A stretch of DNA of 64,000 nt. It comes from a bacterium (GTDB taxonomy: Bacteria > Patescibacteriota > Minisyncoccia > Phycocordibacterales > UBA5272). The stretch covers positions 182-64,181 of the forward strand of contig JAHFNB010000004.1 in NCBI GenBank assembly GCA_023267595.1, written 5' to 3'. Of the stretch, positions 3,882 to 62,920 are shown one piece after another. The translations under genes and the position numbers were made by a program. The notes under the pieces were generated by a model. It did no database searches. It saw only the letters and a list, made by a program, of their open reading frames with translations, and had not been told where the DNA came from. Every line of letters begins with the position of its first letter. The stretch's first letter is position 1.

Positions 3882-4286
3882 TTAGTGAAAGATAAATTTT
3901 TTACGAACCCAAAAGTTGTAGATGAGTATAATACAGGTCGATATCATTTTTGAAAAAAGATAGTATACGGCAAGTTTTTCTGTAAAAAACCAGATGAGAG
4001 ATTGGTTAAGTGCGAGGCCTGTGAGACTCACAAAAACTATGAGCCAGTATTCTTTGTGAATATTTGCAATTTTTGACCCTGTAAAGACGAAATATTTTGC
4101 AAGAATGTAATTGATATTTAGCCCAATAATAAATGCAATTGCTGCAGAAGTTAAGTAGTGAATATGTGCATATTCTGTAAGAGTAAAAAGTGTACCGAAA
4201 TCAAATAAAAAAGCCGTACCACCAACGAGGAGATATTTGAAAAACTGTAGTGCTAGTTTCTCATGCTTTTTAAGCAGGGTTATCAT
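3882..4286 (-). CDS. GtrA-family small membrane protein (polysaccharide synthesis/translocation accessory)
   Basis: About 130 aa, four TM helices, N-terminal motif FFKYLLVGGTAFLFDFG typical of the GtrA family. Confidence 0.65.
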   Translation of the reverse strand: MITLLKKHEKLALQFFKYLLVGGTAFLFDFGTLFTLTEYAHIHYLTSAAIAFIIGLNINYILAKYFVFTGSKIANIHKEYWLIVFVSLTGLALNQSLIWFFTEKLAVYYLFSKMISTCIILIYNFWVRKKFIFH

Positions 4287-4305: not shown

Positions 4306-5820
4306 TTACACTCCACGCAAAACGGTTATTTTCGCTCCAATCGCGTTTAATCTCTCGGCAATATCTGCATACCCACGTTTTATAGAATAGACGTTTCTGA
4401 GCAAGGATGTGCCTGATGCTCCAAGCATTGCAATCAGAATAATTGCCGTAGGACGAAGTGCAGGAGGGGATACAATTTGTGCACCGCGCAGTTTGGTCAC
4501 TCCTGTAACTAGTGCTCGGTGTGGGTCGAGTAATTTTATATCTGCACCGAGTCTGTTTAATTCCGTAAAATAAATAGCACGATTCTCCCATGTCCAATCA
4601 TGAATAAGTGTTTGACCAGAGGCTATGCAACTAATGGGGACAAAGAAAGGGAGATTATCATTATTAATACCGGGAAAAGGTTGTGCATGTATCTTATCTG
4701 TCGGAGCAATGATTTTTGAAGGAAATATAGTGATATCGACAAGTGAAGTTCTGCCATTTTTTGCAAAATATAATTTTGAAAGGGTAAAACGTAATCCCAT
4801 ACGTTTTAATTTTTCTAATTCGAGTGTAAGAAATGTAATTGGTGCACGTGTTATGGTGAGTTTGGATTTTGTCACGATTCCTGCGGCAATGAAGAACATA
4901 CTCTCTATTGGATCTTCACTATTGTAGTGTTCGATATTTACATCGATATCCTTTTTCCCATGTACTATAAGTGTTGTGGTACCAATACCTTCTATTACTA
5001 TACCAAAACTCTCTAGGAGGAAACATACATCTTGTACTTGATAATTTGGTGGTGCAAACATAATAGTTGTTTTCCCTTCAATACGTGATGCGGCCAGAAT
5101 TGCAGTAATCGCACCAGTGTCAGATGATTCGTAGAGTGGAATAGTCCCCGTATGTAGTTTTCTATATGAAATATCGTAGTGGTTTTCTTTTGTCTCGACA
5201 TTAATACCAAGGTATTCTAGAGCATATTTATGTGATGCAACCGTGCGTTCACCCATTTTACATCCACCAGAATGTGGAAGTGTAAAATGATTACCATAAT
5301 GAACAAATGCACCCGCAAAGGTAAATGATCTAATTTGTGTTGCAACGGCTTTGTCTATTTTTGAAAAAGAAAGTTTCTTAGGGGGTGTGATTTCAAGAGC
5401 AGTGTCATCATATATCCACTTTATCTTTACACCGACACTTTCGAGCAATTCTTTGTAGCGATGTACTTCTTCTATGTGGGGGATATCACGTAAAATAGTC
5501 GTGCCATTATTGACGAGTGCAGCAACCATCATATTGATGGCACCATTTTTTGAGGTATTTGTCTTTATACTACCTGAAAGTTTATGACCACCCTCTACTT
5601 TGAAATCAATAGCATTGTGAATACTCACTATGTTGTGTTTAAGGACGTCGCTCATCTTCATGAGTTGGTCTATAGTTACATTTTGATTTCCTGATTCTAT
5701 GCGCGCAACTGCAGACTGGGATGTTTTGAGAGACTTTGCAAATTCTCCTTGCGTCATTCCACGCTCTTCACGTAGTTTTTTTATGAAAAGTCCTATTTTT
5801 TCTTGATCATTAGGAGGCAT
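4306..5820 (-). CDS. murA: UDP-N-acetylglucosamine 1-carboxyvinyltransferase (MurA) fused in frame to an N-terminal XRE-family helix-turn-helix domain
   Basis: Residues 10-55 (IGLFIKKLREERGMTQGEFAKSLKTSQSAVARIESG) form an HTH_3 domain. The remainder aligns to MurA, including the catalytic loop GGCKMGERTV (E. coli GGCTIGARPVD) and the C-terminal RGYADIAERLNAIGAKI. Confidence 0.8.
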   Translation of the reverse strand: MPPNDQEKIGLFIKKLREERGMTQGEFAKSLKTSQSAVARIESGNQNVTIDQLMKMSDVLKHNIVSIHNAIDFKVEGGHKLSGSIKTNTSKNGAINMMVAALVNNGTTILRDIPHIEEVHRYKELLESVGVKIKWIYDDTALEITPPKKLSFSKIDKAVATQIRSFTFAGAFVHYGNHFTLPHSGGCKMGERTVASHKYALEYLGINVETKENHYDISYRKLHTGTIPLYESSDTGAITAILAASRIEGKTTIMFAPPNYQVQDVCFLLESFGIVIEGIGTTTLIVHGKKDIDVNIEHYNSEDPIESMFFIAAGIVTKSKLTITRAPITFLTLELEKLKRMGLRFTLSKLYFAKNGRTSLVDITIFPSKIIAPTDKIHAQPFPGINNDNLPFFVPISCIASGQTLIHDWTWENRAIYFTELNRLGADIKLLDPHRALVTGVTKLRGAQIVSPPALRPTAIILIAMLGASGTSLLRNVYSIKRGYADIAERLNAIGAKITVLRGV

Positions 5821-6631: not shown

Positions 6632-7897
6632 TTAACGGAAGAGATTATAGAAGAAATAAATGGTAAGTGCAGACATGAGAATGGTAATAATGATTCCAAA
6701 GAAGTTTCCAAGTTTTCCGGTTGTTCTGTCACCCATAATCTTTTTGTTATTTCCTACAAGTAAAATGAGAATCATAAGTGGCGGCGCAAGTAATCCATTT
6801 AATATTGCTGCATAGTAGAGCATAGTCATTGGATTAATAGGGGAAAGATTCACAAGTATTCCTACAAGTGTTGCAACAATGATAACAAGGTAAAATCCAC
6901 GTGCTTGGGTAAATGTTTTACTCAATCCTTCACTCCAGTTTGCGGCTTCTGCTATTGCATAGGCTGCAGAACCTGCAAGGACGGGGACAGCAAGTAATCC
7001 AGTACCGACAATACCAAGCGTAAAGAGTAATGATGAGAAATCTCCTGCAAGCGGGCGTAATGATTCTGCAACTTGAGCAGCAGATGTCACTGAAGTAATG
7101 CCATTTGCACCGAGTGTGGCTGCGGCAGTGATAATAATAAAGAATGTAACGAGATTTGAAATAAACATTCCAAATGCAGTATCGGTACGCATTTGTGTAA
7201 TGTCTGCTCTGGTAATCTTTGGCACACCACGACCCATGGCGCGTATTTTGTGATGCATGAGTTCCTCTTCCACTTCTTCATCGGCTTGCCAGAAAAATAA
7301 ATAAGGAGAAATGGTTGTACCGAGCATTGCTGTTACATTCAAAATATACGCAGTATTCCATTCGAAATGAGGGATAAGCGTTGCATTTAAGATTAGCCCC
7401 CAATCTTGTTTAACGGCAAATGCTGCTATGATATATGCAAACACGGTGAGTGCAAGGTATTTTAAGAAAGAAACATATTTCGGATAGGGAATGAAAACTT
7501 CTGTAAGAATAGTGATAGCAGTAAGTATAAGAAGTGCAGGAACAAAAGAAATAGGAAGTACGAGTTGTGTTGCTGCAGCCATAGCCCCTAAGTCTGCACC
7601 GATATTTATGATATTAGTAATTGCGAGTAATGCAATCGCACCAAACAAAATAGGACGAGAATAGTGTTTCTTTAAAATACCTGCAAGACCAGTTCCTGTA
7701 ACTAATCCAATGCGTGCACACATCTCTTGAATGGAAACCATGAAAGGATATGAAAAGAGTGCAAGCCATAATTGTCCGTATCCAAACATAGCACCAGTTT
7801 GTGAGTATGTTGCAATACCTGAAGGATCGTCATCTGCAATACCAGTAATAACTCCCGGTCCTACTGCCTTTTTAAGGCGTTGTATTAATGATTTCAT
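6632..7897 (-). CDS. mntH: Nramp-family divalent metal (Mn2+/Fe2+) transporter
   Basis: Nramp signature GPGVITGIADDDPSGIATYSQTGA, about 11 TM helices. Confidence 0.9.
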   Translation of the reverse strand: MKSLIQRLKKAVGPGVITGIADDDPSGIATYSQTGAMFGYGQLWLALFSYPFMVSIQEMCARIGLVTGTGLAGILKKHYSRPILFGAIALLAITNIINIGADLGAMAAATQLVLPISFVPALLILTAITILTEVFIPYPKYVSFLKYLALTVFAYIIAAFAVKQDWGLILNATLIPHFEWNTAYILNVTAMLGTTISPYLFFWQADEEVEEELMHHKIRAMGRGVPKITRADITQMRTDTAFGMFISNLVTFFIIITAAATLGANGITSVTSAAQVAESLRPLAGDFSSLLFTLGIVGTGLLAVPVLAGSAAYAIAEAANWSEGLSKTFTQARGFYLVIIVATLVGILVNLSPINPMTMLYYAAILNGLLAPPLMILILLVGNNKKIMGDRTTGKLGNFFGIIITILMSALTIYFFYNLFR

Positions 7898-7964
7898 ATA
7901 GCCCTTAGTTTATAGTCAATAGTTATTAGTTACTAGGGGAATATAAACATATTAAATAAAAAAC

Positions 7965-7994
7965 TATATTTACTTGACTAGTCAAGTAAATATA
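7965..7994. promoter_or_regulatory. 30-bp perfect palindrome tatatttacttgact-agtcaagtaaatata; metalloregulator-type operator candidate about 70 bp upstream of mntH
   Basis: 15+15 perfect inverted repeat read directly. It overlaps the -35 of the consensus promoter listed next. Confidence 0.6.
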
Positions 7995-8003
7995 TGCTAT
8001 AAT
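7974..8003 (+). promoter_or_regulatory. consensus sigma70 promoter TTGACT-N18-TATAAT on the + strand; the -35 is embedded in the palindrome
   Basis: ttgact at 7974-7979 and tataat at 7998-8003. There is no + strand CDS downstream, only a structured 160-nt region and a terminator. Confidence 0.55.
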
Positions 8004-8009
8004 ATATTG

Positions 8010-8141
8010 ATTAGGATACATGATCAAAGTTTTAGAGATGATCATGGAAAGGGCTGAAGGAAAATCCTAGGTTGGATACCGTGCCTCCGGAGACCAACCC
8101 TATACTTTGCTGATGACAAAGTATCAGTACTCGAGTGCATC
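8010..8141 (+). ncRNA. candidate small structured RNA, or cis-leader if read from the other strand for mntH; identity unknown
   Basis: Bracketed by the consensus promoter and an intrinsic terminator. Contains an 8-bp inverted repeat catgatca...tgatcatg, stems aggttgg/ccaacct and agga-aaaa-tcct, and no ORF above 16 codons. Confidence 0.3.
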
Positions 8142-8169
8142 AAAAACCGAGATACGTCTCGGTTTTTTT
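8142..8169. terminator. bidirectional intrinsic terminator (A-run, ccgaga-tacg-tctcgg, T-run) shared by trxB (-) and the putative + strand small RNA
   Basis: Hairpin flanked by A6 on one side and T7 on the other. The trxB stop codon abuts it. Confidence 0.7.
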
Positions 8170-9109
8170 ACGCGTGAATATGAAGATAAATATCTTCTAG
8201 TGCGCGTACTGCATCTCCTGCTGCGATGTTATTTTGATGATATAACACATCTGTGCAATCTCCGGCTGCCCATATACCTTGTACAGACGTCTCTTGTGTA
8301 CGAGGGTTTATTACAATATTTTTCGTCTCAGTTACTTGTACAAGATTTTCTATAAAAGATGTGGCAGGGATTTGACCTATTTCTACAAAGACTGCAGAGG
8401 TTGGAAGAGTTATATCTTCTCCATCTTTTGTATAGGTAATTGATTCGACGAATTTACTTCCTGTAATTGATTTTGGAATTGCACCAACGATAAGTTTAAA
8501 ATGTTCCTTTATTTTTAATTTTTCTATAGTGATTGCATCTGCTCTTGGTTCACTTCGTGAAAGAAGTGTTACTGATTTACAATAGGCGAGTAATTGTGCA
8601 GCAGATTCAAATCCTGCATTTCCTCCACCAACAACTACAACATCCATTCCTGAAAAGAGTGGTCCATCACATGATGCACAATAGGTGATACCTTTATTCT
8701 CAAATTCTTCTGCACCAGTGACCTCTAATTTTCTGCGAGATGAACCTGCTGCGATGAGAATAGTTTTTGATTTCTGCTCTCCTTTATCTGTGGTTATTGT
8801 AAAATCTCCATGTGATCCAGTGATAGACGAAACAGTTGCTTCTATAATGTGTAAAATATCACCTTTGTATTCTTCGACGTGTGATTTAAGGGATTCTGCA
8901 AGTTTTGCACCACTGATATGTGGGGTTCCTATCCAGTTTTGGATATCATCAGACACGATTGATTGTCCTCCCCATTCTTTTACGATAAGAAGTGTTTTTA
9001 GTTGTTTACGCGCAGCATATACTGCAGCAGCACTTCCTGCAGGACCACCTCCTACGATTATTAAATCGTAGATAGGTGAGAGGTTAGAGGTGGTAGGTAA
9101 AAGAGACAT
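8168..9109 (-). CDS. trxB: thioredoxin-disulfide reductase
   Basis: FAD motif IVGGGPAGSAAAVYAA, redox-active CASCDG, and the NAD(P) motif GGGNAGFE. Confidence 0.9.
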   Translation of the reverse strand: MSLLPTTSNLSPIYDLIIVGGGPAGSAAAVYAARKQLKTLLIVKEWGGQSIVSDDIQNWIGTPHISGAKLAESLKSHVEEYKGDILHIIEATVSSITGSHGDFTITTDKGEQKSKTILIAAGSSRRKLEVTGAEEFENKGITYCASCDGPLFSGMDVVVVGGGNAGFESAAQLLAYCKSVTLLSRSEPRADAITIEKLKIKEHFKLIVGAIPKSITGSKFVESITYTKDGEDITLPTSAVFVEIGQIPATSFIENLVQVTETKNIVINPRTQETSVQGIWAAGDCTDVLYHQNNIAAGDAVRALEDIYLHIHA

Positions 9110-18227: not shown

Positions 18228-18545
18228 ATGAAGAAATACTCTGGTTTGAAACATTACATTAGTGTTTTACGTAGACAACCACGTCATATGCAACATATGT
18301 ACGGGTTTCTTTTTGCAGGAAGTATCACTGCACTGATTGCAGGATTTATTCTTTATACCGATTATGGATTTTGGCATGAAAGATACACAAGACAAGATGA
18401 AACTCTTGTGATCAGAGATGAGGGAGAACCAGAACCACCAAGTAAAATGCTCTCACGCTTTATAGAACAAGCCAGAACTCAATTTGGCACTATTGGTAAA
18501 ACAGGGTCATCAATTTTGGAAGGAAAAGAGACATACACAAGATGA
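18228..18545 (+). CDS. small membrane protein, hypothetical (105 aa, one TM helix)
   Basis: ORF with a single hydrophobic helix (FLFAGSITALIAGFILY). Confidence 0.4.
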   Translation: MKKYSGLKHYISVLRRQPRHMQHMYGFLFAGSITALIAGFILYTDYGFWHERYTRQDETLVIRDEGEPEPPSKMLSRFIEQARTQFGTIGKTGSSILEGKETYTR

Positions 18546-21222: not shown

Positions 21223-21744
21223 ATGTTTCTTACTCCCGAACACTTGGTCAAAGAATTATATTTAAAAGCAGGTGATAGAGCAGCCGACATTGGTTGCGGT
21301 ACTGGTGTGTATACAATTGCTCTTGCACAAGAAGTAGGAGATGTAGGACAAGTATATGCAGTGGATGTACACAGAGATATATTACACACGCTTGCAGGTA
21401 CACTTGAAAAGCGTTCTATCATGAATGTAGAAATAGTTTGGGCAGATATCGAAAAAGGAATACCGATAGACGCATATTCACTAGATGCAGTCGTTATTTC
21501 GAACGTACTCTTTCAACTTGAGGATATTGATGCCATGTTGTCCTATGTAGCAAAACTCTTGAAACCAGAAGGACAACTACTGGTTGTAGAGTGGAGTGCA
21601 TCACACTCGGGTATTGGTCCACATACAGATCATGTAGTAGAGGAATCTCGTGCAGAATCTCTCGTCCAAAAACACGGGTTTAGAATTATAAAACATCTTC
21701 CCGCAGGGAATTATCATTACGCATTTATTGCTTTATCGATGTAG
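21223..21744 (+). CDS. class I SAM-dependent methyltransferase
   Basis: Motif I DIGCGTGVYT and post-II LKPEGQLLVVEW. Confidence 0.75.
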   Translation: MFLTPEHLVKELYLKAGDRAADIGCGTGVYTIALAQEVGDVGQVYAVDVHRDILHTLAGTLEKRSIMNVEIVWADIEKGIPIDAYSLDAVVISNVLFQLEDIDAMLSYVAKLLKPEGQLLVVEWSASHSGIGPHTDHVVEESRAESLVQKHGFRIIKHLPAGNYHYAFIALSM

Positions 21745-37743: not shown

Positions 37744-39795
37744 TTGCATATGTCAAGTAAAGATCATAGAAAACGAGAAGGAACATTTATATTAAAGGGC
37801 TTTATTCCTGCAGGTGATCAACCAAAAGCAATCAAAAGTCTTGTGGATGGATTACAGAAAGGAATAAAGCGACAAACACTTCTTGGTGCTACAGGCACAG
37901 GGAAGACTTTTACTATTGCAAATGTAATAGAGAAGATTCAAAAACCAACACTTGTTATTGCTCATAATAAAACACTTGCAGCCCAACTTGCACAAGAGTT
38001 TCGAACATTTTTCCCAGATGCTGCAGTGCACTATTTTGTATCGTATTATGACTACTACCAACCAGAAGCCTATATGCCAGTTACGGATACCTATATTGAA
38101 AAAGATGCACAGATCAATGAAGAGATAGATAGATTACGTCATGCATCTACCCAAGCGCTTCTTACACGAAAAGATGTGATCATTGTCGCATCAGTGTCAT
38201 GTATTTATGGTCTTGGTTCACCAGTTGATTATGAAAGAGAAAATATACGATTATCTGTCGGAGATTCTGTTTCAAAAGTAGGGCTTATGCAAAAGTTTGT
38301 AGGAATTTATTATGAGAGAACAAATGCGGATTTATCTCCAGGGACATTTCGTGCCCTTGGAAACAGAATAGATATTATGCCTATTTCTGAAACAATTATG
38401 CTTCAGTTAGAAATCGCAGGTGGAAAGATCTCTCATATGCAAGTTGTAGATCCTGTATCTATGAAACTTTTAAAAGAAGTGGAGAGTTATTTTATTTTTC
38501 CCGCAAAACATTTTATTTCAGATGTACCAACACGTGAGCGCGCCGTAAAAACAATTGAGCAAGAATTAAAAGAACAACTTGCATATTTTGATAAAGAAGG
38601 AAAAATATTGGAAGCAGAAAGACTTAAGCGTCGTACACGCTATGATATTGCCATGATTAAAGAAGTGGGATTTTGTCAGGGAATTGAAAATTATTCACGA
38701 CATTTATCTGGTAAAAAAGAAGGTGTAGCACCAGATACACTTCTTGAATATTTTCCACATAATGAAAAAGGAGAACCAGAGTTTTTGACTGTGATTGATG
38801 AGTCCCACGTAACTCTCCCACAATTACACGGCATGTATGCAGGAGACCAATCACGAAAGAAAACACTTGTAGAGTATGGCTTCAGACTTCCTTCTGCAAA
38901 GGATAATAGACCATTGCGTTATGAAGAATTTGAACAACGTGTGAGTGATGTTGTATACGTAAGTGCGACACCTGGTGATTATGAAAGAAAAGAATCTGAA
39001 CAAATTATAGAGCAGATTATTCGTCCGACAGGATTATTGGATCCAGTACTGGATGTACGCCGTGTTAGTGCTTCAGGAAATTATAAAGGGCAAGTGACAG
39101 ATTTTATAGGAGAAGTAGTAAAAGATGTAAAGTCAGGTGGACGAGTACTCGTGACAACACTTACCAAAAAAATGGCAGAAAATTTGGCAGAGTATTTGAA
39201 AGAACAAGGTGTAAAAGCAGAGTATGTACATAGTGATATAAAAACAATGGAACGTATTACTATTCTGACAAAGTTTAGACGTGGAGAATTTGATTGTTTG
39301 GTTGGAGTTAACTTACTTCGAGAAGGATTGGATTTACCAGAAGTGACACTTATTGGAATACTTGATGCTGATAAAGAGGGGTTTTTACGTAGTGAAACAT
39401 CACTGATTCAAACAATTGGGCGTGCTGCACGTAATTCAAAAGGTCGTGTAATTTTGTATGCAGATGTTATGACAGGTTCAATGGACCGAGCAATTAATGA
39501 AACAAATCGTAGACGCAAAATTCAAGAAGACTATAATAAAGAGCATAATATTACTCCAACAACAATTGAAAAAAATATTAAAGATATCACTGAAGAGTTA
39601 CAAAGTACACATGCAAAAGCAGTAAATGCTGAACTTGAAATTGATAAAAAATTATTTGCAAAAAATCCTGATAAGTTAATCAAGTTGAAAGAGAAAGCAA
39701 TGAAAGAAGCCGTAAAGATTCTTGATTTTGAAACAGCAGCAATATTACGTGATGAAATAGAAGTGTTGCAAGAAAAGTTACGTACTACACAATAG
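37744..39795 (+). CDS. uvrB: excinuclease ABC subunit B
   Basis: GDQPKAI, Walker A GATGTGKT, helicase motifs and the C-terminal UVR domain. Confidence 0.95.
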   Translation: MHMSSKDHRKREGTFILKGFIPAGDQPKAIKSLVDGLQKGIKRQTLLGATGTGKTFTIANVIEKIQKPTLVIAHNKTLAAQLAQEFRTFFPDAAVHYFVSYYDYYQPEAYMPVTDTYIEKDAQINEEIDRLRHASTQALLTRKDVIIVASVSCIYGLGSPVDYERENIRLSVGDSVSKVGLMQKFVGIYYERTNADLSPGTFRALGNRIDIMPISETIMLQLEIAGGKISHMQVVDPVSMKLLKEVESYFIFPAKHFISDVPTRERAVKTIEQELKEQLAYFDKEGKILEAERLKRRTRYDIAMIKEVGFCQGIENYSRHLSGKKEGVAPDTLLEYFPHNEKGEPEFLTVIDESHVTLPQLHGMYAGDQSRKKTLVEYGFRLPSAKDNRPLRYEEFEQRVSDVVYVSATPGDYERKESEQIIEQIIRPTGLLDPVLDVRRVSASGNYKGQVTDFIGEVVKDVKSGGRVLVTTLTKKMAENLAEYLKEQGVKAEYVHSDIKTMERITILTKFRRGEFDCLVGVNLLREGLDLPEVTLIGILDADKEGFLRSETSLIQTIGRAARNSKGRVILYADVMTGSMDRAINETNRRRKIQEDYNKEHNITPTTIEKNIKDITEELQSTHAKAVNAELEIDKKLFAKNPDKLIKLKEKAMKEAVKILDFETAAILRDEIEVLQEKLRTTQ

Positions 39796-40283: not shown

Positions 40284-40817
40284 ATGAAGACATACATTTC
40301 CATACTCCTTGTTGTCTTGGGTCTTGGGGTGATTGTCTCTGGTGGATATCTCTATACAAAAAATAGTTCGAAACAAATATCGTCAACGGTGAAATATGAT
40401 ACTGTTCCAATGAAATTATATACATCATCTCTTACTCGTTTTCACGATGGCGATAAGAAAATTGACTACAGTTTTACTATTCCAGAGAATGCAACGGTAA
40501 TACCTGGCATGGATGGTGCTCTCACTAAGATTACTACTGCTACATCATCGTATGCAACAGTGTATGTAAGTTATGAAGGAGGCAGAGGATTTACCCCACT
40601 TGATTATATTAATGAAATTGTCGCACCACATGTATCTGTCATAAATCCAACAGGTGTTGTTACTATTGGAGATCGTGTGTGGCAAGTAGCAGAATCAGAA
40701 GGGAGTGAATGGCATATTGCACAAGTTGGAGATAATAAGTGGCTTTTCATTGTTGAGAATAAAAAGTTTAACCATAGTTTAGTGGAAAAGACTCTTGAGA
40801 GTGTAACGGTTAAATAG
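40284..40817 (+). CDS. N-terminally anchored or secreted hypothetical protein
   Basis: Hydrophobic N-terminal helix (ISILLVVLGLGVIVSGG) followed by a soluble region. Confidence 0.45.
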   Translation: MKTYISILLVVLGLGVIVSGGYLYTKNSSKQISSTVKYDTVPMKLYTSSLTRFHDGDKKIDYSFTIPENATVIPGMDGALTKITTATSSYATVYVSYEGGRGFTPLDYINEIVAPHVSVINPTGVVTIGDRVWQVAESEGSEWHIAQVGDNKWLFIVENKKFNHSLVEKTLESVTVK

Positions 40818-50603: not shown

Positions 50604-51545
50604 ATGTTACACGTCTCAAAATCACTTCCTGATATTGCAGTGATTCGCGGAGGAGCAAAAGAATTTGATATTTCTCTGTCTGAAGGAAAAGAAGTATTAC
50701 AATCACTTTCAAGAATCGGATACAAACCAATTGATGTTATTATTTCTCGTGATGGAGAATGGAATGCAAATGGTGTACCAACAGATGCACATACTATTTT
50801 TACAAAATCTCATACCACAATAGACACAACACGTACTCGTGATGAATCATATCACACACTTGCAAAGAAAATGGAAATACCATTGTTACTTTCACATGGA
50901 AATAATATGTCTCTTGATAGAGAAGATGTGTACCGATTATTACGTCAACAGGGAATACGTGTACCAGATACAGTGACTATACGTGCGCAACAACCACTCA
51001 AAGACAGTATGTTTCGTGATTTATGGACGACGTATCATACACCTCTTATGGTGCGACCACTTGTGCGACGTAATGATGCGCCGACAAAACTTATAAAAAT
51101 ATTTCCAGAATTAGAAAATGTCATTCGTACCTATCATGATAAAGGAATAGATATGCACATACTTACATATCGTAAAGCACCGACATCATCTATTGCAGTG
51201 CTACCAGATTTTCAAGGGGAACGTTTGTATACCCCACTTTGGGTAGAAACATTTGCGAGTATGAGTGATGTTCCAAATAGTACTTCGCCAATGCGTGTGC
51301 ATCATAGTGCGCCAGATTTTCGAAAAGAGCAGATAAAAGATTTTGTAACCAAGGTATATGATGCTCTCGATCTTTCAGGTCCTGTTTGTATAGATATTAT
51401 TCCGCATAATAATGAATATATTGTTGTGAATGTTGATACACATCCATCGTTACGCAAAGATAGTCGCTTCTCACAATCTCTTGCCTCAACAGGTGCAACT
51501 ATTGGTCAGTACATTCATTCACGTATTTTGAAAGAGAATATATAA
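50604..51545 (+). CDS. D-alanine--D-alanine ligase-like ATP-grasp protein (divergent; the ATP-grasp motifs are degenerate)
   Basis: N-terminus IAVIRGGAKEFDISLSEGKEVLQSL resembles the Ddl N-domain. The central and C-terminal ATP-binding motifs are not clearly conserved. Confidence 0.4.
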   Translation: MLHVSKSLPDIAVIRGGAKEFDISLSEGKEVLQSLSRIGYKPIDVIISRDGEWNANGVPTDAHTIFTKSHTTIDTTRTRDESYHTLAKKMEIPLLLSHGNNMSLDREDVYRLLRQQGIRVPDTVTIRAQQPLKDSMFRDLWTTYHTPLMVRPLVRRNDAPTKLIKIFPELENVIRTYHDKGIDMHILTYRKAPTSSIAVLPDFQGERLYTPLWVETFASMSDVPNSTSPMRVHHSAPDFRKEQIKDFVTKVYDALDLSGPVCIDIIPHNNEYIVVNVDTHPSLRKDSRFSQSLASTGATIGQYIHSRILKENI

Positions 51546-51559
51546 TATAGTATTTAATT

Positions 51560-51680
51560 AATTTATTGCATTAGATGCAAGGCGTGGAGTGTTTGTGAGG
51601 AGATGTAGATAGAACTACGTTGACGAACAAACGAGGCTCCACAACACAGCAGATGATGTAATAAATTAATTAAAGAAAAA
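51560..51680. repeat. long imperfect inverted repeat (ttaattaatttattgcat ... atgtaataaattaattaa, 17 of 18) enclosing about 80 bp with internal gtggag/ctccac pairing
   Basis: Read directly; could fold into a hairpin of about 120 nt. Confidence 0.5.
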
Positions 51681-51689
51681 GAAAATACG

Positions 51690-51730
51690 CGCCTCTGGTA
51701 AGTGTCGCGTATTTTCTTTTGTTACTTTTT
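51690..51730. terminator. bidirectional terminator aaaatacgcg-cctctggtaagtgt-cgcgtatttt
   Basis: 10-bp stem flanked by an A-run and a T-run. Confidence 0.6.
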
Positions 51731-52014
51731 ATTCAAAAGTGACGTCTTTGTTTGATGCGTTACGGTTGCTTCTGGCTTCCGTTTTTTGTTAGCAGATCCT
51801 TACGAATCTACTTCCAGTTGTTTTGAAGCCGCATCTGCTTTTTTATCGGCATTGATGTAAGCAGTTTATAATCTACTCACATCTTTATAGACTTCAAGAA
51901 CCCATGTTCTTTTTTCTAGTACTAAAAGCTGATAATAATGAAACAACTGTCTACCACTAGTGTACCAACCCTGCGTGATATACTCAAGTCATACAAGGGT
52001 AGTTATTCACATAT

Positions 52015-59076: not shown

Positions 59077-62000
59077 TTATTGAAGTACTTTTACCTCATC
59101 AATTGCAATAGTTTTTTCTCCATTTCTTGTAGAGACTTTACCACGCATAATAAGGGGAGTGTCGAGTTTCAAGATACTTTTATAACGTTTATATATTTCC
59201 GGGAAAATAGCCACTTCGATAACACCTGTGTAATCACGTAATTTAACAAGTGCCATCTGGTCTCCTTTTTTGGTCATGGTAGTTTTTATAGTTTCTATAA
59301 TTATTGCGAGAGATACTTCTTTACCATCAGGAGTTTCTGAATGGACTTTTTCAATATCAATACCACGACTTTCAATTTTTTCTTTCCATGGATCAAGTGG
59401 AAATCCTGAAACAAAAAGTCCGAGCAATTCTTTTTCCCATGCTAATTTTTGTTCTGCGGTAACAGGGGGTGCTTTTTTCATAACAAATGTTGAGGTCTCC
59501 ATACCACCAAATAAACTATGTTGCATGATGTTGTCTTTTACAACATGTTTATGAAAACTTAAAATGCTATCCATATTAGCAAGTATCTCTCCACGTTCAC
59601 CTAATTCATCAAGTGCTCCACACATGGTGAGTGCTTCGATAGATCGTTTATTTAAGTTTTGGTGTGTGACACGGCGAATGAAATCTTCAAATGATATGAA
59701 CTTTCCTTTTTCGTTTCGTTCTTTAATAATTGCGTCTGCAATATCGCTACCTAGATTTTTAATGGTATAGAGACCAAAACGTATTTCTTCTTTACCGTTA
59801 TCATCTTCAACAATAGAAAATTCTCCCTGACTCATATTAATATCAGGTGGTAATACTTTTATTTTCATACGTTTACATTCAGAAACGATTTCTGCAATCT
59901 TTTCTATATCACCACTTTCATTAGTCATGATGGATGTCATGTAGGCAACAGGGAAGTTTGCTTTCATGTATGCTGTTTGGTAGGCAACACGTCCATAACT
60001 AGCAGCATGTGCTTTGTTGAATCCATATGCGGCGAATGGTTCGATAAGTGACCAAAGTAACTGGCTTTTCTTAGCAGAGAGACCATGCTCAACGAAACCT
60101 TTCAAAAGGTTTTCTTTTTGTGCTTGCATTTCTGCGGGAATCTTTTTACCCATTGCTTTACGAAGTGTATCTGCTTTAAGCCATGAGTATCCTGCTAAGT
60201 GAATAGCAATGAGCATCACATCATCTTGGTAAACAATGACACCAAATGATTGATCAAGAATTGGTTCTAATCTCGGATCCACATATGAAATAAGTGAAGG
60301 GTCATGTTTACGTTTTATATATTCAGGAATCATTTCAAGAGGTCCTGGACGATACAGTGCTACCATTGCATTTATATCAAATATAGTTGTTGGCTTTAAC
60401 TCTTTTAAAAATCGCGTCATTCCAGAACCATTTAATTGAAATAGTCCCATTGTTTCACCTCGAGCAAGCATGTCAAAAGTTTTCTGATCATCAAGAGGAA
60501 TCTCTTCTATATCAATATCAACGCTGTAGCGTTTCTTTGCAATTTTAATTGCGTCTCCAAGAATTGTTAAGTTACGAATACCAAGAAAATCAAATTTAAG
60601 CAATCCCGCGTCTTCAATAGTGTACATGTCATATTGTGTAATAATTTTCCCACCTTTTGGATCTTTTTGAATTGGTGTAAAGTCCCAAAGTGGAGAAGGG
60701 GAGATAACAGTGCCTGCAGCATGAACAGAAATATGACGTGCACACCCTTCTACTTTTTGTGCCATATCTAGAATAATTTGTGTCTCACGGTCGGTGTCAT
60801 ACATTTCCTTGAGTTCTGGAATGTCATCAAGCGCGCTTTTGATAGTAACCGGAAAGCCTTGTTTTGGCATTGGAATTAACTTACTAATTCTATCGCCTAC
60901 AATATAAGGGAATTTCATTGCACGTGCTACGTCACGCACTGCACCACGTGCCATCATCGTACCGAATGTTCCAATCTGTGCAACATTATCCATACCATAT
61001 TTTGCTCGCACATAGTCAAGCACTTCATCACGTCCTGTATCTGCAAAGTCCATATCAATATCAGGTGCAGAAGGACGTTCAGGATTTAAAAATCGTTCGA
61101 AAGGGAGTTTATATTCGAGAGGGTTACATTTTGTAATACGAAGAAGATATGTAGTAAGAGACCCTGCAACTGATCCACGAATATTAGTGAGTATGTCATG
61201 TTCTCGTGCATAGCGTAGTAAATCGTATACCACCAAGAAATATGGCGAGTACCCTTTATCCTTAATTACTTTTAATTCGTAGTCGAGACGTGTTTGTATT
61301 ATTTCATTTAATTCTAATCCTCTAATCTCTATACCTTTGTATGCAAGTTCACGAAGATCTTCATCGTAACTTTTTTTATATTCAATATTTGGAAACACCC
61401 ATGCACCAAGTGGTATTTTCAAGTCACATTTCTCTGCGATTTTTTCAGTATTTTCTAGTGCATCAGGTACATCAGAAAACATACCGTGTACTTCATTTTG
61501 TGAGAGAAAAGAAAAAGAATCTTTTTGAAAGAGATGATTATATGACTCAGTTGAATGCTCATCACCGTGTACAAGATAGAGTGTCTTATGTGCAGGCTTA
61601 TCTTGTTCTTGTAAATAATGTGTATTGCATGTAGCAACAAGGGGAGTATTTGTAGTCTTTCCATATTCTATAGTTTTTGTTCGCATAGTCTCTCCATGCT
61701 CCATAGATTTTTGAGGATTTATTTCAAGATAAAAATCCTCGCCAAAGTTTTCTTTGTAAAAGGCTAACCTCTCATCTGCTTCTTTTCTATTAATTACAAG
61801 AAGGTTACTAATATCACCCCAGACACCACCAGATAAAACAATGAGCCCTTCTTTATAGGTTGTGAGAATACTATCAGTTATTACAGGGGAGAGTGGATTA
61901 GTAACGTTTACAATAGAAGTAATACGCATCAAGTTTTTGTACCCTATAGTATTTTTTGCAATAAGGATGATTTGAAATACTCTGTCATTATATTGAAGAG

Positions 62001-62199
62001 AGTATTCCACACCTATAATAGGTTTAATACCTTTATCAAGACAGGTTTTATAGAACTCTATAGTGCCATACATATTACTATAGTCAGTAATAGCAAGAGA
62101 TGTCATTTTTAGTTGGTTAGCCTTTTTTATCAGATCTCCTACCTTGGGAAGTGCTTTTAAAAGGGAATAATGAGTATGATTACGGAGATGGACGAACAT
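59077..62199 (-). CDS. dnaE: DNA polymerase III alpha subunit
   Basis: N-terminal PHP domain (FVHLRNHTHYSLL) and a DnaE-type polymerase core; 1040 aa. Confidence 0.95.
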   Translation of the reverse strand: MFVHLRNHTHYSLLKALPKVGDLIKKANQLKMTSLAITDYSNMYGTIEFYKTCLDKGIKPIIGVEYSLQYNDRVFQIILIAKNTIGYKNLMRITSIVNVTNPLSPVITDSILTTYKEGLIVLSGGVWGDISNLLVINRKEADERLAFYKENFGEDFYLEINPQKSMEHGETMRTKTIEYGKTTNTPLVATCNTHYLQEQDKPAHKTLYLVHGDEHSTESYNHLFQKDSFSFLSQNEVHGMFSDVPDALENTEKIAEKCDLKIPLGAWVFPNIEYKKSYDEDLRELAYKGIEIRGLELNEIIQTRLDYELKVIKDKGYSPYFLVVYDLLRYAREHDILTNIRGSVAGSLTTYLLRITKCNPLEYKLPFERFLNPERPSAPDIDMDFADTGRDEVLDYVRAKYGMDNVAQIGTFGTMMARGAVRDVARAMKFPYIVGDRISKLIPMPKQGFPVTIKSALDDIPELKEMYDTDRETQIILDMAQKVEGCARHISVHAAGTVISPSPLWDFTPIQKDPKGGKIITQYDMYTIEDAGLLKFDFLGIRNLTILGDAIKIAKKRYSVDIDIEEIPLDDQKTFDMLARGETMGLFQLNGSGMTRFLKELKPTTIFDINAMVALYRPGPLEMIPEYIKRKHDPSLISYVDPRLEPILDQSFGVIVYQDDVMLIAIHLAGYSWLKADTLRKAMGKKIPAEMQAQKENLLKGFVEHGLSAKKSQLLWSLIEPFAAYGFNKAHAASYGRVAYQTAYMKANFPVAYMTSIMTNESGDIEKIAEIVSECKRMKIKVLPPDINMSQGEFSIVEDDNGKEEIRFGLYTIKNLGSDIADAIIKERNEKGKFISFEDFIRRVTHQNLNKRSIEALTMCGALDELGERGEILANMDSILSFHKHVVKDNIMQHSLFGGMETSTFVMKKAPPVTAEQKLAWEKELLGLFVSGFPLDPWKEKIESRGIDIEKVHSETPDGKEVSLAIIIETIKTTMTKKGDQMALVKLRDYTGVIEVAIFPEIYKRYKSILKLDTPLIMRGKVSTRNGEKTIAIDEVKVLQ

Positions 62200-62275: not shown

Positions 62276-62920
62276 ATGAATAAAGCAAAAAAGTATAAAG
62301 GAGTAATAGGTATAGATGAAGTAGGGCGTGGTCCACTTGCAGGGCCTGTTACAGTTTGTGCTATTTATATAGAAAATACAAAACTAGTTAAAAAAGATAT
62401 ATTTGAAGATAATATTAGAGATTCCAAGAAAATAAAAAAAACTACTAGAAACAGTATATATTTAACTATTAGTAAAAACAGATATTTAAAAACAAATATA
62501 AAGTATTCAATTTCTTCAGTATCTGCTAAGTATATTGATAAATATGGTATTCAAGCATCAATAAAGAAATGTGTAGATAAATCTTTATCTGATCTTAAGG
62601 CACTAGGTATTCTTATAGAGAAAATACCTATACATATGGATGCTGGTCTTGTTTCTAGTCATAAAAATCTTAGACAAAGTAATTTCATTAGAGGGGATGA
62701 GAGTTTTACGGAGATAGCACTTGCGTCTATTATGGCGAAAGAAGAGAGAGATATCTACATGCAAAAGTTACATAAAGTGTTTTCTAAGTATAATTGGCAG
62801 AAAAATGTAGGATATGGAACAAAAAAACATAGAGAAGCAATAGACAGGTACGGTATTACAAAATACCATAGAATCTCTTATTTAAAGGCTTTTAAACAAT
62901 TCGATAAAACAGATAATTAA
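62276..62920 (+). CDS. rnhB: ribonuclease HII
   Basis: GIDEVGRGPLAGPV catalytic motif, with a Lys-rich insertion. Confidence 0.85.
   Translation: MNKAKKYKGVIGIDEVGRGPLAGPVTVCAIYIENTKLVKKDIFEDNIRDSKKIKKTTRNSIYLTISKNRYLKTNIKYSISSVSAKYIDKYGIQASIKKCVDKSLSDLKALGILIEKIPIHMDAGLVSSHKNLRQSNFIRGDESFTEIALASIMAKEERDIYMQKLHKVFSKYNWQKNVGYGTKKHREAIDRYGITKYHRISYLKAFKQFDKTDN

Follow-up and report, generated by a model that had tools for sequence, protein, structure and literature searches.

A candidate gene for a small structured RNA in the spacer between mntH and trxB of a Patescibacteria genome

The stretch of DNA analysed here, hereafter the window, comprises 64,000 nucleotides (nt) of contig JAHFNB010000004.1 and belongs to the genome of an uncultured groundwater bacterium of the Patescibacteria, or Candidate Phyla Radiation (CPR). 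The 80 closest loci for the neighbouring NRAMP-type transporter come nearly all from metagenome-assembled genomes (MAGs) of Paceibacterota, Nomurabacteria and other Patescibacteria. Our subject is the 270-nt spacer between two genes of the minus strand: the NRAMP-type gene mntH, which encodes a manganese transporter (6632-7897, with its ATG at 7897), and a thioredoxin-reductase-like gene, trxB (8168-9109, stop codon at 8168-8170), beyond which lie ftsZ and ftsA. This spacer is the site of a candidate small RNA (sRNA) gene. An initial annotation, made from the letters alone, had seen in it either an sRNA gene on the plus strand or a long 5' leader of mntH on the minus strand, and the features that it listed are all present, with one small correction regarding the length of a GC stem.

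The element is preceded on the plus strand by a sigma-70-type promoter (7974-8003) of the form TTGACT-18-TGcTATAAT, consisting of a -35 box TTGACT (7974-7979), a spacer of 18 nt, the TG of an extended -10 element (7995-7996) and the -10 box TATAAT (7998-8003), with a predicted transcription start at ~8010. The initial annotation had called this a consensus promoter, and it does match 11 of the 12 consensus positions in addition to the TG. Only two sites in the 64 kb reach a match of at least 11 of 12, and such sites accompanied by the TG would be expected by chance about 0.15 times. The sequence TGCTATAAT of this promoter also precedes the open reading frame (ORF) starting at 37744. Overlapping the promoter, and absent from the initial annotation, is a perfect palindrome of 30 base pairs (bp), TATATTTACTTGACT/AGTCAAGTAAATATA (7965-7994; 15+15 nt, 100% complementary), with half-site TTTACTTGACT and the -35 box at its centre. 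Its 18-nt core is unique in the window, where 0.04 occurrences would be expected, and its position makes the palindrome a candidate operator common to the divergent promoters of the RNA and mntH.

Downstream of the promoter, several hairpins can be recognised in the plus-strand RNA. The first of them, P2 (8019-8046), pairs CAUGAUCA with UGAUCAUG around a 12-nt loop, AAGUUUUAGAGA, and corresponds to the 8-bp inverted repeat CATGATCA/TGATCATG (8019-8026 and 8039-8046) already reported in the initial annotation. A purine-rich linker, GAAAGGGCUGAAGGAAAAUCCUA (8047-8069), leads to hairpin P4 (8070-8099), which reads GGUUGG-AUA-CCG-UGCCUC-CGG-AGA-CCAACC, appears in every fold of either strand, and is composed of a 6-bp stem, a 3x3 internal loop, a 3-bp stem and a hexaloop. 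It is here that the correction applies: the GC stem given as aggttgg/ccaacct holds as GGTTGG/CCAACC (8070-8075 and 8094-8099), with six pairs, the supposed seventh being an A opposite a C. Hairpin P5 (8102-8124) pairs AUACUUUG with CAAAGUAU around the loop CUGAUGA, and a 3' linker, CAGUACUCGAGUGCAUC (8125-8141), precedes the terminator.

The intrinsic terminator (8142-8169) is a hairpin of 11 bp, AAAAACCGAGA-UACG-UCUCGGUUUUU followed by UU, with its arms at 8142-8152 and 8157-8167, the loop TACG between them and the T-run ending at 8169. This hairpin was missed by the automated terminator scan of the window, probably because the A/T runs were absorbed into the stem. It had been described as a clean bidirectional terminator; the hairpin is there, with a better U-tract on the plus strand, where 7 U follow the stem, than on the minus strand, where 5 U are followed by GAUG. 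The U-tract also overlaps the stop codon of trxB (8168-8170, minus strand), so that transcription of trxB, too, probably ends at this hairpin in the window.

The evidence that carries our interpretation comes from the comparison with a groundwater MAG, nzgw472 (locus L001), whose MntH is 88% identical to that of the window. This is the only one of the 80 mntH loci in which nhmmer and blastn found the block, at 87% identity over 287 nt. The identity amounts to 92% in the region upstream of mntH (7898-7960), 88% in the promoter, 85% in the RNA body and 82% in the terminator; the stretch proximal to mntH (7898-7950, in its minus-strand sense) lies outside the RNA and inside the same conserved block. 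The promoter is kept as TTGACT-18-TGtTATAAT, and within the purine-rich linker GGAAAGGGCUGAAG is invariant. The genomic background is lower: in mntH, DNA identity is 77% overall and 45% at four-fold degenerate sites, the murA-like gene likewise has 77%, and the other two spacers common to both genomes have 60% and 44%. Right at the border of the block, the first 60 nt of mntH have an identity of 77%, with 50% at third codon positions; at the other border, the 51-nt remnant of the trxB 3' end found beside the terminator of nzgw472 encodes the same GDAVRALEDIYLHIHA* as the window through 10 nucleotide differences, all of them synonymous. The elevated identity is therefore confined to the non-coding block and ends at both coding borders, which argues against a recent transfer tract, and purifying selection on the block would be a simpler explanation than a recombination tract.

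The organisation around that remnant deserves an observation of its own. In L001, the 51 nt of the trxB 3' end (2671-2723) come after the stop codon of an ABC-transporter gene (931-2670) and adjoin the RNA terminator, and a full trxB with a different 3' end is located further upstream (17-811). This arrangement indicates a recent rearrangement, a second copy of trxB or a chimeric assembly.

The RNA body differs between the two genomes by 17 substitutions and 4 single-base indels. Only 5 of the 17 substitutions fall in the 46 stem positions of P2, P4 and P5, and four of those five form two compensatory double changes in P5. When the same substitutions are placed at random, at least two compensatory pairs arise with P = 0.008, and the additional demand of no more than one broken pair lowers this to P = 0.0008; this simulation of substitution placement replaced a shuffle control for structure pairs, which with two sequences is uninformative (131/500). 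P5 thus varies between the copies and stays paired: in nzgw472 it reads UGAUCUUG / CAAGAUUA and, with the 1-nt indel placed in the junction, both copies form 8 bp, 4 of which are changed on both sides, two of the compensatory double changes being independent of the alignment. The comparative alignment proposed by the initial annotation as a source of covariation has accordingly yielded a helix preserved through changes on both of its sides, in one relative. The other two hairpins hardly vary. In P2, 7 of the 8 pairs are invariant and the innermost one becomes A.C on the plus strand; in P4, all 9 pairs are invariant and the sole difference is AGA to ACA in the internal loop. Such invariance is uninformative either way as regards structure.

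Folding energies add less. The fold of 8004-8169 has z = -3.3, and for the body (8010-8141) the plus strand of the window gives -33.5 kcal/mol (z = -1.5) and the minus strand -37.8 kcal/mol (z = -3.2), with -35.0 kcal/mol (z = -1.6) and -34.1 kcal/mol (z = -1.6), respectively, in nzgw472. Thermodynamics alone is weak evidence, and the convincing non-random signal is the conservation together with the compensatory change. Besides the three hairpins, two further helices are possible in the models. One of them, the weak helix P3, would be formed by the linker 8047-8069 and would pair AGGG with UCCU in the window and with CCCU in L001; alternatively, the GCUG of this linker could pair with CAGU at 8125-8128. 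Positions 8125-8141 could likewise pair with 8014-8019 in a helix P1 that would close a multi-branch junction; this helix appears as GGGUAC/GUAUUC in the minimum-energy fold of L001, and in the window it has an A.C mismatch and adds only 0.3 kcal/mol.

From these sequence signals, our preferred reading, to which we assign a probability of roughly 0.6, is that the block holds an independently transcribed, lineage-restricted gene for a small structured non-coding RNA, encoded on the plus strand from ~8010 to ~8167-8169 (~155-160 nt). The unit is intergenic, and the sequence signals of a promoter and of a Rho-independent terminator of its own share one strand and are both kept in nzgw472; the unit has no conserved protein-coding frame; and, in that single relative, it is conserved above the neutral rate and one of its helices has undergone structure-preserving substitutions. 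The canonical sRNA gene layout recognised by the initial annotation is therefore upheld, and its stand-alone plus-strand gene is the best-supported reading; the alternatives that it offered, an mntH leader and a manganese riboswitch, are not supported, as explained below. We infer the strand from the transcription signals, which decide for plus because the extended -10 promoter is conserved and the U7 follows the hairpin directly in both genomes, the minus strand of nzgw472 having UAUG between the stem and its U-run.

We likewise infer that the unit is transcribed, that it is connected with the regulation of mntH, and how it acts; the mechanism would be as follows. RNA polymerase would start ~7 nt after the extended -10 box, and the transcript would form no fewer than three hairpins, P2, P4 and P5, with the conserved purine-rich linker joining them, and would be terminated next to the trxB stop codon by the hairpin with the U7 tail. 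The RNA gene would be divergent from mntH and, because its -35 box lies inside the 30-bp palindrome, a dimeric DNA-binding regulator would probably control it, and possibly also the neighbouring mntH promoter, located ~60 bp away. If the palindrome also affects the mntH promoter, the RNA would be co-regulated with manganese uptake. Once made, the RNA would fold into a particle and bind a protein or a small ligand in trans, since ~85% of its 132-nt body, two complete helices included, is unchanged between genomes whose synonymous sites are nearly randomised; a classical antisense sRNA with a short seed would not need so much conserved sequence.

Several observations weigh against this reading. 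Only two sequences are available, both from one aquifer community of New Zealand groundwater, and the covariation comes from a single helix. Watson-Crick compensation is blind to the strand, and the wobble evidence is balanced at 1:1, as one exchanged pair of P5 in nzgw472 is G.U on the plus strand and A.C on the minus strand, whereas the innermost pair of P2 favours the minus strand. The folding energy of the plus-strand body is unremarkable, the minus strand being better in the window and neither strand differing from the other in nzgw472. The closing helices of the multi-branch structure, P1 and P3, are tentative in the models. The palindrome is imperfect in nzgw472, where its right arm has two changes, and the operator idea is weakened by this. 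Finally, an RNAduplex scan of the RNA against 58 gene starts of the window gave a best score of -21.4 kcal/mol, within the -19 to -27 obtained with shuffled RNAs, and mntH and trxB were among the weakest scores of all.

Four other explanations have to be considered, which our analysis ranks, from the likeliest to the least likely, as a minus-strand element, regulatory DNA or a cassette remnant, a terminator-controlled antisense unit, and a tiny peptide. The first of them is unlikely, in our judgement, and the way in which genes start in this genome speaks against it. A box of the type TAnA[AC]T (typically TATACT) ends 6-9 nt before the start codon in 14 of the 58 long ORFs of the window, against 1.2 expected, and a Shine-Dalgarno-like 4-mer precedes only 10 of the 58; both counts are sequence-based and indicate that leaderless mRNAs are common in this genome. 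Examples of ORFs with the box include 3882-4286, 18228-18545, 21223-21744, 40284-40817, 59077-62199 and 62276-62920. The gene mntH itself has a -10-like TAAACT (7907-7912) 9 nt before its ATG, as in those other genes, which is kept in L001 and L107, and for this reason the promoter of mntH is most likely a proximal one, with the block 8004-8169 upstream of it, and its mRNA leaderless or nearly so. The proximal region further contains a series of heptads (7898-7945), TAGTTTA TAGTCAA TAGTTAT TAGTTAC TAG on the plus strand, TAGTNNN corresponding to NNNACUA on the mntH strand. This pattern recurs in relatives with 80-87% identical MntH and is seen in L001, L107 and L104; the heptads could represent either a tandem series of -10-like boxes or a site bound by a regulator.

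Under the minus-strand explanation, trxB and mntH would have an intercistronic or leader element between them, which would give the mntH mRNA a structured 5' region controlling the expression of this gene, and which would be transcribed either by read-through from trxB or from a start inside the palindrome (TTTACT-16-TATAGT, 7990-7963, a promoter-like site with a 9/12 match). Read-through is conceivable, as in L107 and L002 trxB and mntH lie ~60 nt apart with no terminator between them, which makes co-transcription plausible as the ancestral state. These same relatives are part of the case against a leader, since L002, L107 and L108 all keep mntH and its proximal upstream sequence, with the trxB stop codon ~60 nt from the mntH ATG and nothing in between. 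Together with the -10-like box so close to the ATG, this leaves the mntH leader of the initial annotation unsupported. As to folding, the minus-strand body of the window has the better z, and the minus-strand fold of 7898-8169 reaches z = -6.7 and pairs AGCCCUU with an AAGGGCU just before the mntH AUG; however, that z is inflated by the palindrome and the terminator, the folds of nzgw472 have no strand preference, and the AAGGGCU is not conserved, being AGUGACU in L001 and AGAGAUU in L107. The wobble pairs divide, since the innermost pair of P2 fits only the minus strand and the G.U of P5 would be an A.C mismatch there. The position of the hairpin and its U-run, which on the minus strand come upstream of the structure and not between it and mntH, also speaks against a leader, and the near-consensus promoter of the plus strand would be left unexplained.

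The second explanation holds that there is no RNA gene, and that the block either combines DNA that regulates mntH with the terminator of trxB or is the remnant of a cassette formerly carrying a gene at this site, its high identity in the two genomes arising from recent exchange between co-resident lineages. Both genomes that carry the block do occur in the same sequencing run, SRR14366796. Moreover, the trxB-mntH spacer appears from the sequences compared to be a variable site where small cassettes are swapped. It is empty in L002, L107 and L108, and because these three keep the sequence proximal to mntH, the block can be defined as a discrete indel of ~215 nt (7951-8167 of the window), which relatives with 78-80% identical MntH do not have. 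In L003-L006, L106 and L114 the spacer contains a divergent tfoX_N gene, after which, in L106 and L114, come ~345 nt that read as a small ORF of ~78 aa, richer in GC. In L105 the spacer is occupied by an unrelated structured element, in the same orientation as the candidate RNA.

A palindrome of 30 bp and heptad repeats are, in addition, typical of control elements that act at the DNA level. We nevertheless consider this explanation to have a small chance of being right, because 132 nt at 85% identity go far beyond what operators need, because compensatory changes keep the 8-bp hairpin, and because identity is back at the genomic level from precisely the mntH start codon onwards, as it is within the trxB remnant. 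A decayed tfoX_N gene in particular is not recognisable in the block: blastx against a database of five proteins gave a best E of 0.87, and nhmmer found no DNA match to the L003-L006 and L106 loci.

In the sequences compared, the block occurs only in the two co-resident groundwater lineages. The contigs of the closest MntH and TrxB relatives, drawn from ENA and Logan, were inspected; two of them, L104 and L109, end 90 and 37 nt before mntH, and the block was not found in the others. A covariance model built from the two copies (R1) was run over 86 sources and recovered only those two known copies, all other hits having E >= 0.4, and a further search over five more loci with filters off, L114 and L115 being among the sources searched, again returned only the two known copies. 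The invariant 18-mer GGATACCGTGCCTCCGGA had 23 matches in metagenome contigs, all of them in unrelated GC-rich sequence and none with an nhmmer match to the RNA. Three patterns searched in viral contigs gave nothing except one chance 19-mer in an apparent coding sequence, and blastn of phages and plasmids found no copy.

According to the third explanation, which we regard as improbable, the plus-strand unit would be a sensor followed by a terminator, working by attenuation in the manner of a riboswitch, and bypass of this terminator would yield an antisense RNA running into the convergent trxB and lowering its expression. The layout is the appropriate one, with a promoter, a multi-hairpin domain, an intrinsic terminator and then the 3' end of the convergent gene, and the body is conserved far beyond the needs of a seed-type sRNA. 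The UCGAG at 8131-8135 could pair with CGAG(A) of the 5' arm of the terminator, a pairing in which a C-to-U change would still give G.U on the plus strand. Yet this candidate anti-terminator has only 4 bp against the 11 bp of the terminator, no riboswitch model of Rfam matches, and no ligand can be suggested. Moreover, the downstream gene of L001 is the ABC-transporter gene, with only a 51-nt remnant of trxB, and the unit is kept there all the same.

The encoding of a very small protein is the least likely of all and verges on the negligible: the ORF of 16 codons noted by the initial annotation as the only one in the block is there (8020-8070), and its ATG and first four codons (MIKV) are identical in L001, but a 1-nt insertion after them shifts the frame, so that the window would encode MIKVLEMIMERAEGKS and L001 MIKVCRDDHGKG; a second possible frame, MTKYQYSS... 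from the ATG at 8113, is uninterrupted in L001, since the indel in the terminator measures 6 nt, but its translation would have to pass the terminator hairpin and continue on the strand opposite to trxB; neither of the two ATGs has a Shine-Dalgarno sequence or lies 6-9 nt after a -10 box, and the substitutions of the block have no bias towards synonymous changes.

The preferred reading, an sRNA gene, also has to be placed among the known families. When the window was searched with the 4227 covariance models of Rfam 15, only tRNAs reached the gathering score. In 7850-8250, on both strands and at E<=10, the hits were terminator-driven or noise, the best one having 19 bits against a cutoff of 54; at E<=0.5 window-wide there was no match in the region of the block, nor did L001 and the other loci give any match. 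The layout is thus that of an ordinary stand-alone bacterial sRNA gene, and its sequence and structure belong to no described family. The Rfam scan proposed in the initial annotation, which had hinted at a riboswitch or small-RNA control of manganese transporters, has come back without any family on either strand, the yybP-ykoY Mn2+ riboswitch included, and we do not retain the riboswitch suggestion. The candidate does resemble yybP-ykoY in being a structured RNA of ~100-130 nt near a gene for manganese transport, followed by an intrinsic terminator. However, the yybP-ykoY family normally precedes exporters on the same strand, whereas the candidate RNA points away from mntH, has no gene downstream on its own strand and is not recognised on either strand, even at E<=10, by the covariance model, which captures a four-helix architecture with conserved L1/L3 loops.

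Comparable mainly by their neighbourhood are the sRNA genes linked to metals, such as the Fur-controlled sRNAs of the RyhB/FsrA type, rybA/mntS beside manganese genes in Escherichia coli, and RsaC of Staphylococcus aureus, which derives from the 3' untranslated region (UTR) of mntABC. The candidate has in common with them a short non-coding transcript with its own sigma-70-type promoter and a Rho-independent terminator beside a gene for metal uptake, and the palindrome over its promoter could confer a comparable regulation by metal or stress. RsaC is also much longer, and mntS encodes a peptide. The candidate RNA resembles none of these sRNAs in sequence or by covariance model, the scan of gene starts in the window revealed neither an antisense seed nor a target for it, and its conservation extends over nearly the whole body, not just a seed. 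Its host, furthermore, hardly uses Shine-Dalgarno sequences, so that occlusion of ribosome-binding sites is unlikely as a mode of action.

With 6S RNA, the RNA of the signal recognition particle (SRP) and other housekeeping RNAs, which might have diverged in CPR genomes beyond recognition, the candidate has in common a size of 130-180 nt, a strong promoter and a very high conservation relative to coding genes. Unlike 6S RNA, a rod with paired 5' and 3' ends and a large central bubble, it consists of several short hairpins, and unlike SRP RNA, it has no hairpin resembling a GNRA-capped helix 8, judged by eye. Its absence from the syntenic site of close relatives would be unexpected for an essential RNA, even though the RNA could lie elsewhere in those genomes.

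Other identities were considered and set aside. A hammerhead ribozyme, in which three stems surround a CUGAUGA core with an invariant C3 and the core is followed by stem II and GAAA, is suggested by CUGAUGA, which here is simply the 7-nt loop of P5; its C is U in L001, and no hammerhead model matches. For 6S RNA, the predicted folds were multi-hairpin and Rfam gave no match. A C/D-box-like RNA has in its favour an sR4 match of E = 9, which is noise. A sponge of the CsrA type could be read from five GGA motifs, of which, by eye, two are lost in L001 and two are inside stems. The loop CCUCC as an anti-Shine-Dalgarno sequence is a moot point where so few ORFs have a motif to be bound, and mimicry of the start region of mntH (AAGGGCU...) lacks conservation in L001 and L107.

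The structured element in the spacer of L105 belongs to a second orphan unit, present in the window at 51541-51722 on the plus strand. It is composed of a TATAAT (51541-51546), a long hairpin of ~110 nt (51555-51670) and a terminator-like hairpin that extends to ~51722. Its homologues are found at 1436-1535 of L105 and 675-773 of L115, both on the minus strand, so that it occupies three different genomic sites. RNAalifold on the three sequences predicts 32 pairs, 9 of them with compensatory double changes, and Rfam has no match for it. The two units are alike in having a TATAAT, a structured RNA and a terminator-like hairpin, in belonging to the same clade and in matching no Rfam family. They differ in that their sequences are unrelated and that the second unit is a single long hairpin with AT-rich inverted ends instead of several short hairpins; the candidate RNA, moreover, is known only beside mntH. 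The second unit could be a novel structured RNA or an element similar to miniature inverted-repeat transposable elements (MITE-like). Since it fills the trxB-mntH spacer of L105, it supports the view that this spacer receives independent small units of structured RNA.

Some further observations were made along the window. The ~290 nt downstream of the second unit (51723-52014) contain no ORF of at least 40 aa, and a TGATATACT box at ~51977-51985 precedes the next gene. The first 344 nt of the window hold a 5'-truncated tRNA (1-46) and then a 145-nt unit repeated perfectly in tandem 2.2 times (32-344), every repeat beginning with a copy of the tRNA 3' end (ATCCTCTATCGCCCACA...); this looks like repeated duplications of the attachment-site type at a tRNA gene. 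The murA-like ORF (4306-5820, minus strand), of the EPSP_synthase fold, has an N-terminal domain of the HTH_3/Xre type of ~70 residues, an unusual fusion whose architecture was also called in L106, L110 and L112.

CPR bacteria have tiny genomes with few recognisable regulators, and no characterised small RNA of CPR or Patescibacteria turned up in our literature searches. Without expression of the RNA, there would remain a conserved promoter and terminator region, which would be ordinary. What makes the locus worth attention is a non-coding block better conserved than the essential genes that flank it, with clean transcription signals, in a host whose leaderless gene starts make the classical mode of action of sRNAs unlikely. 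It is a tentative idea, and one that we hold to be possible but doubtful, that this RNA is the founding member of a class of structured regulatory RNAs specific to Patescibacteria, made from a promoter whose palindromic operator also serves the manganese importer gene, and that it would work as a folded particle binding a protein or a ligand and through a mechanism different from that of the sRNAs that occlude ribosome-binding sites. Were this true, the candidate RNA and the second orphan unit together would indicate that modules of promoter, RNA and terminator are portable in these minimal genomes and settle in the same spacers. The block is, in any case, a candidate for RNA-based regulation or for an RNA-protein particle in CPR bacteria, placed beside genes for manganese uptake and thiol redox.

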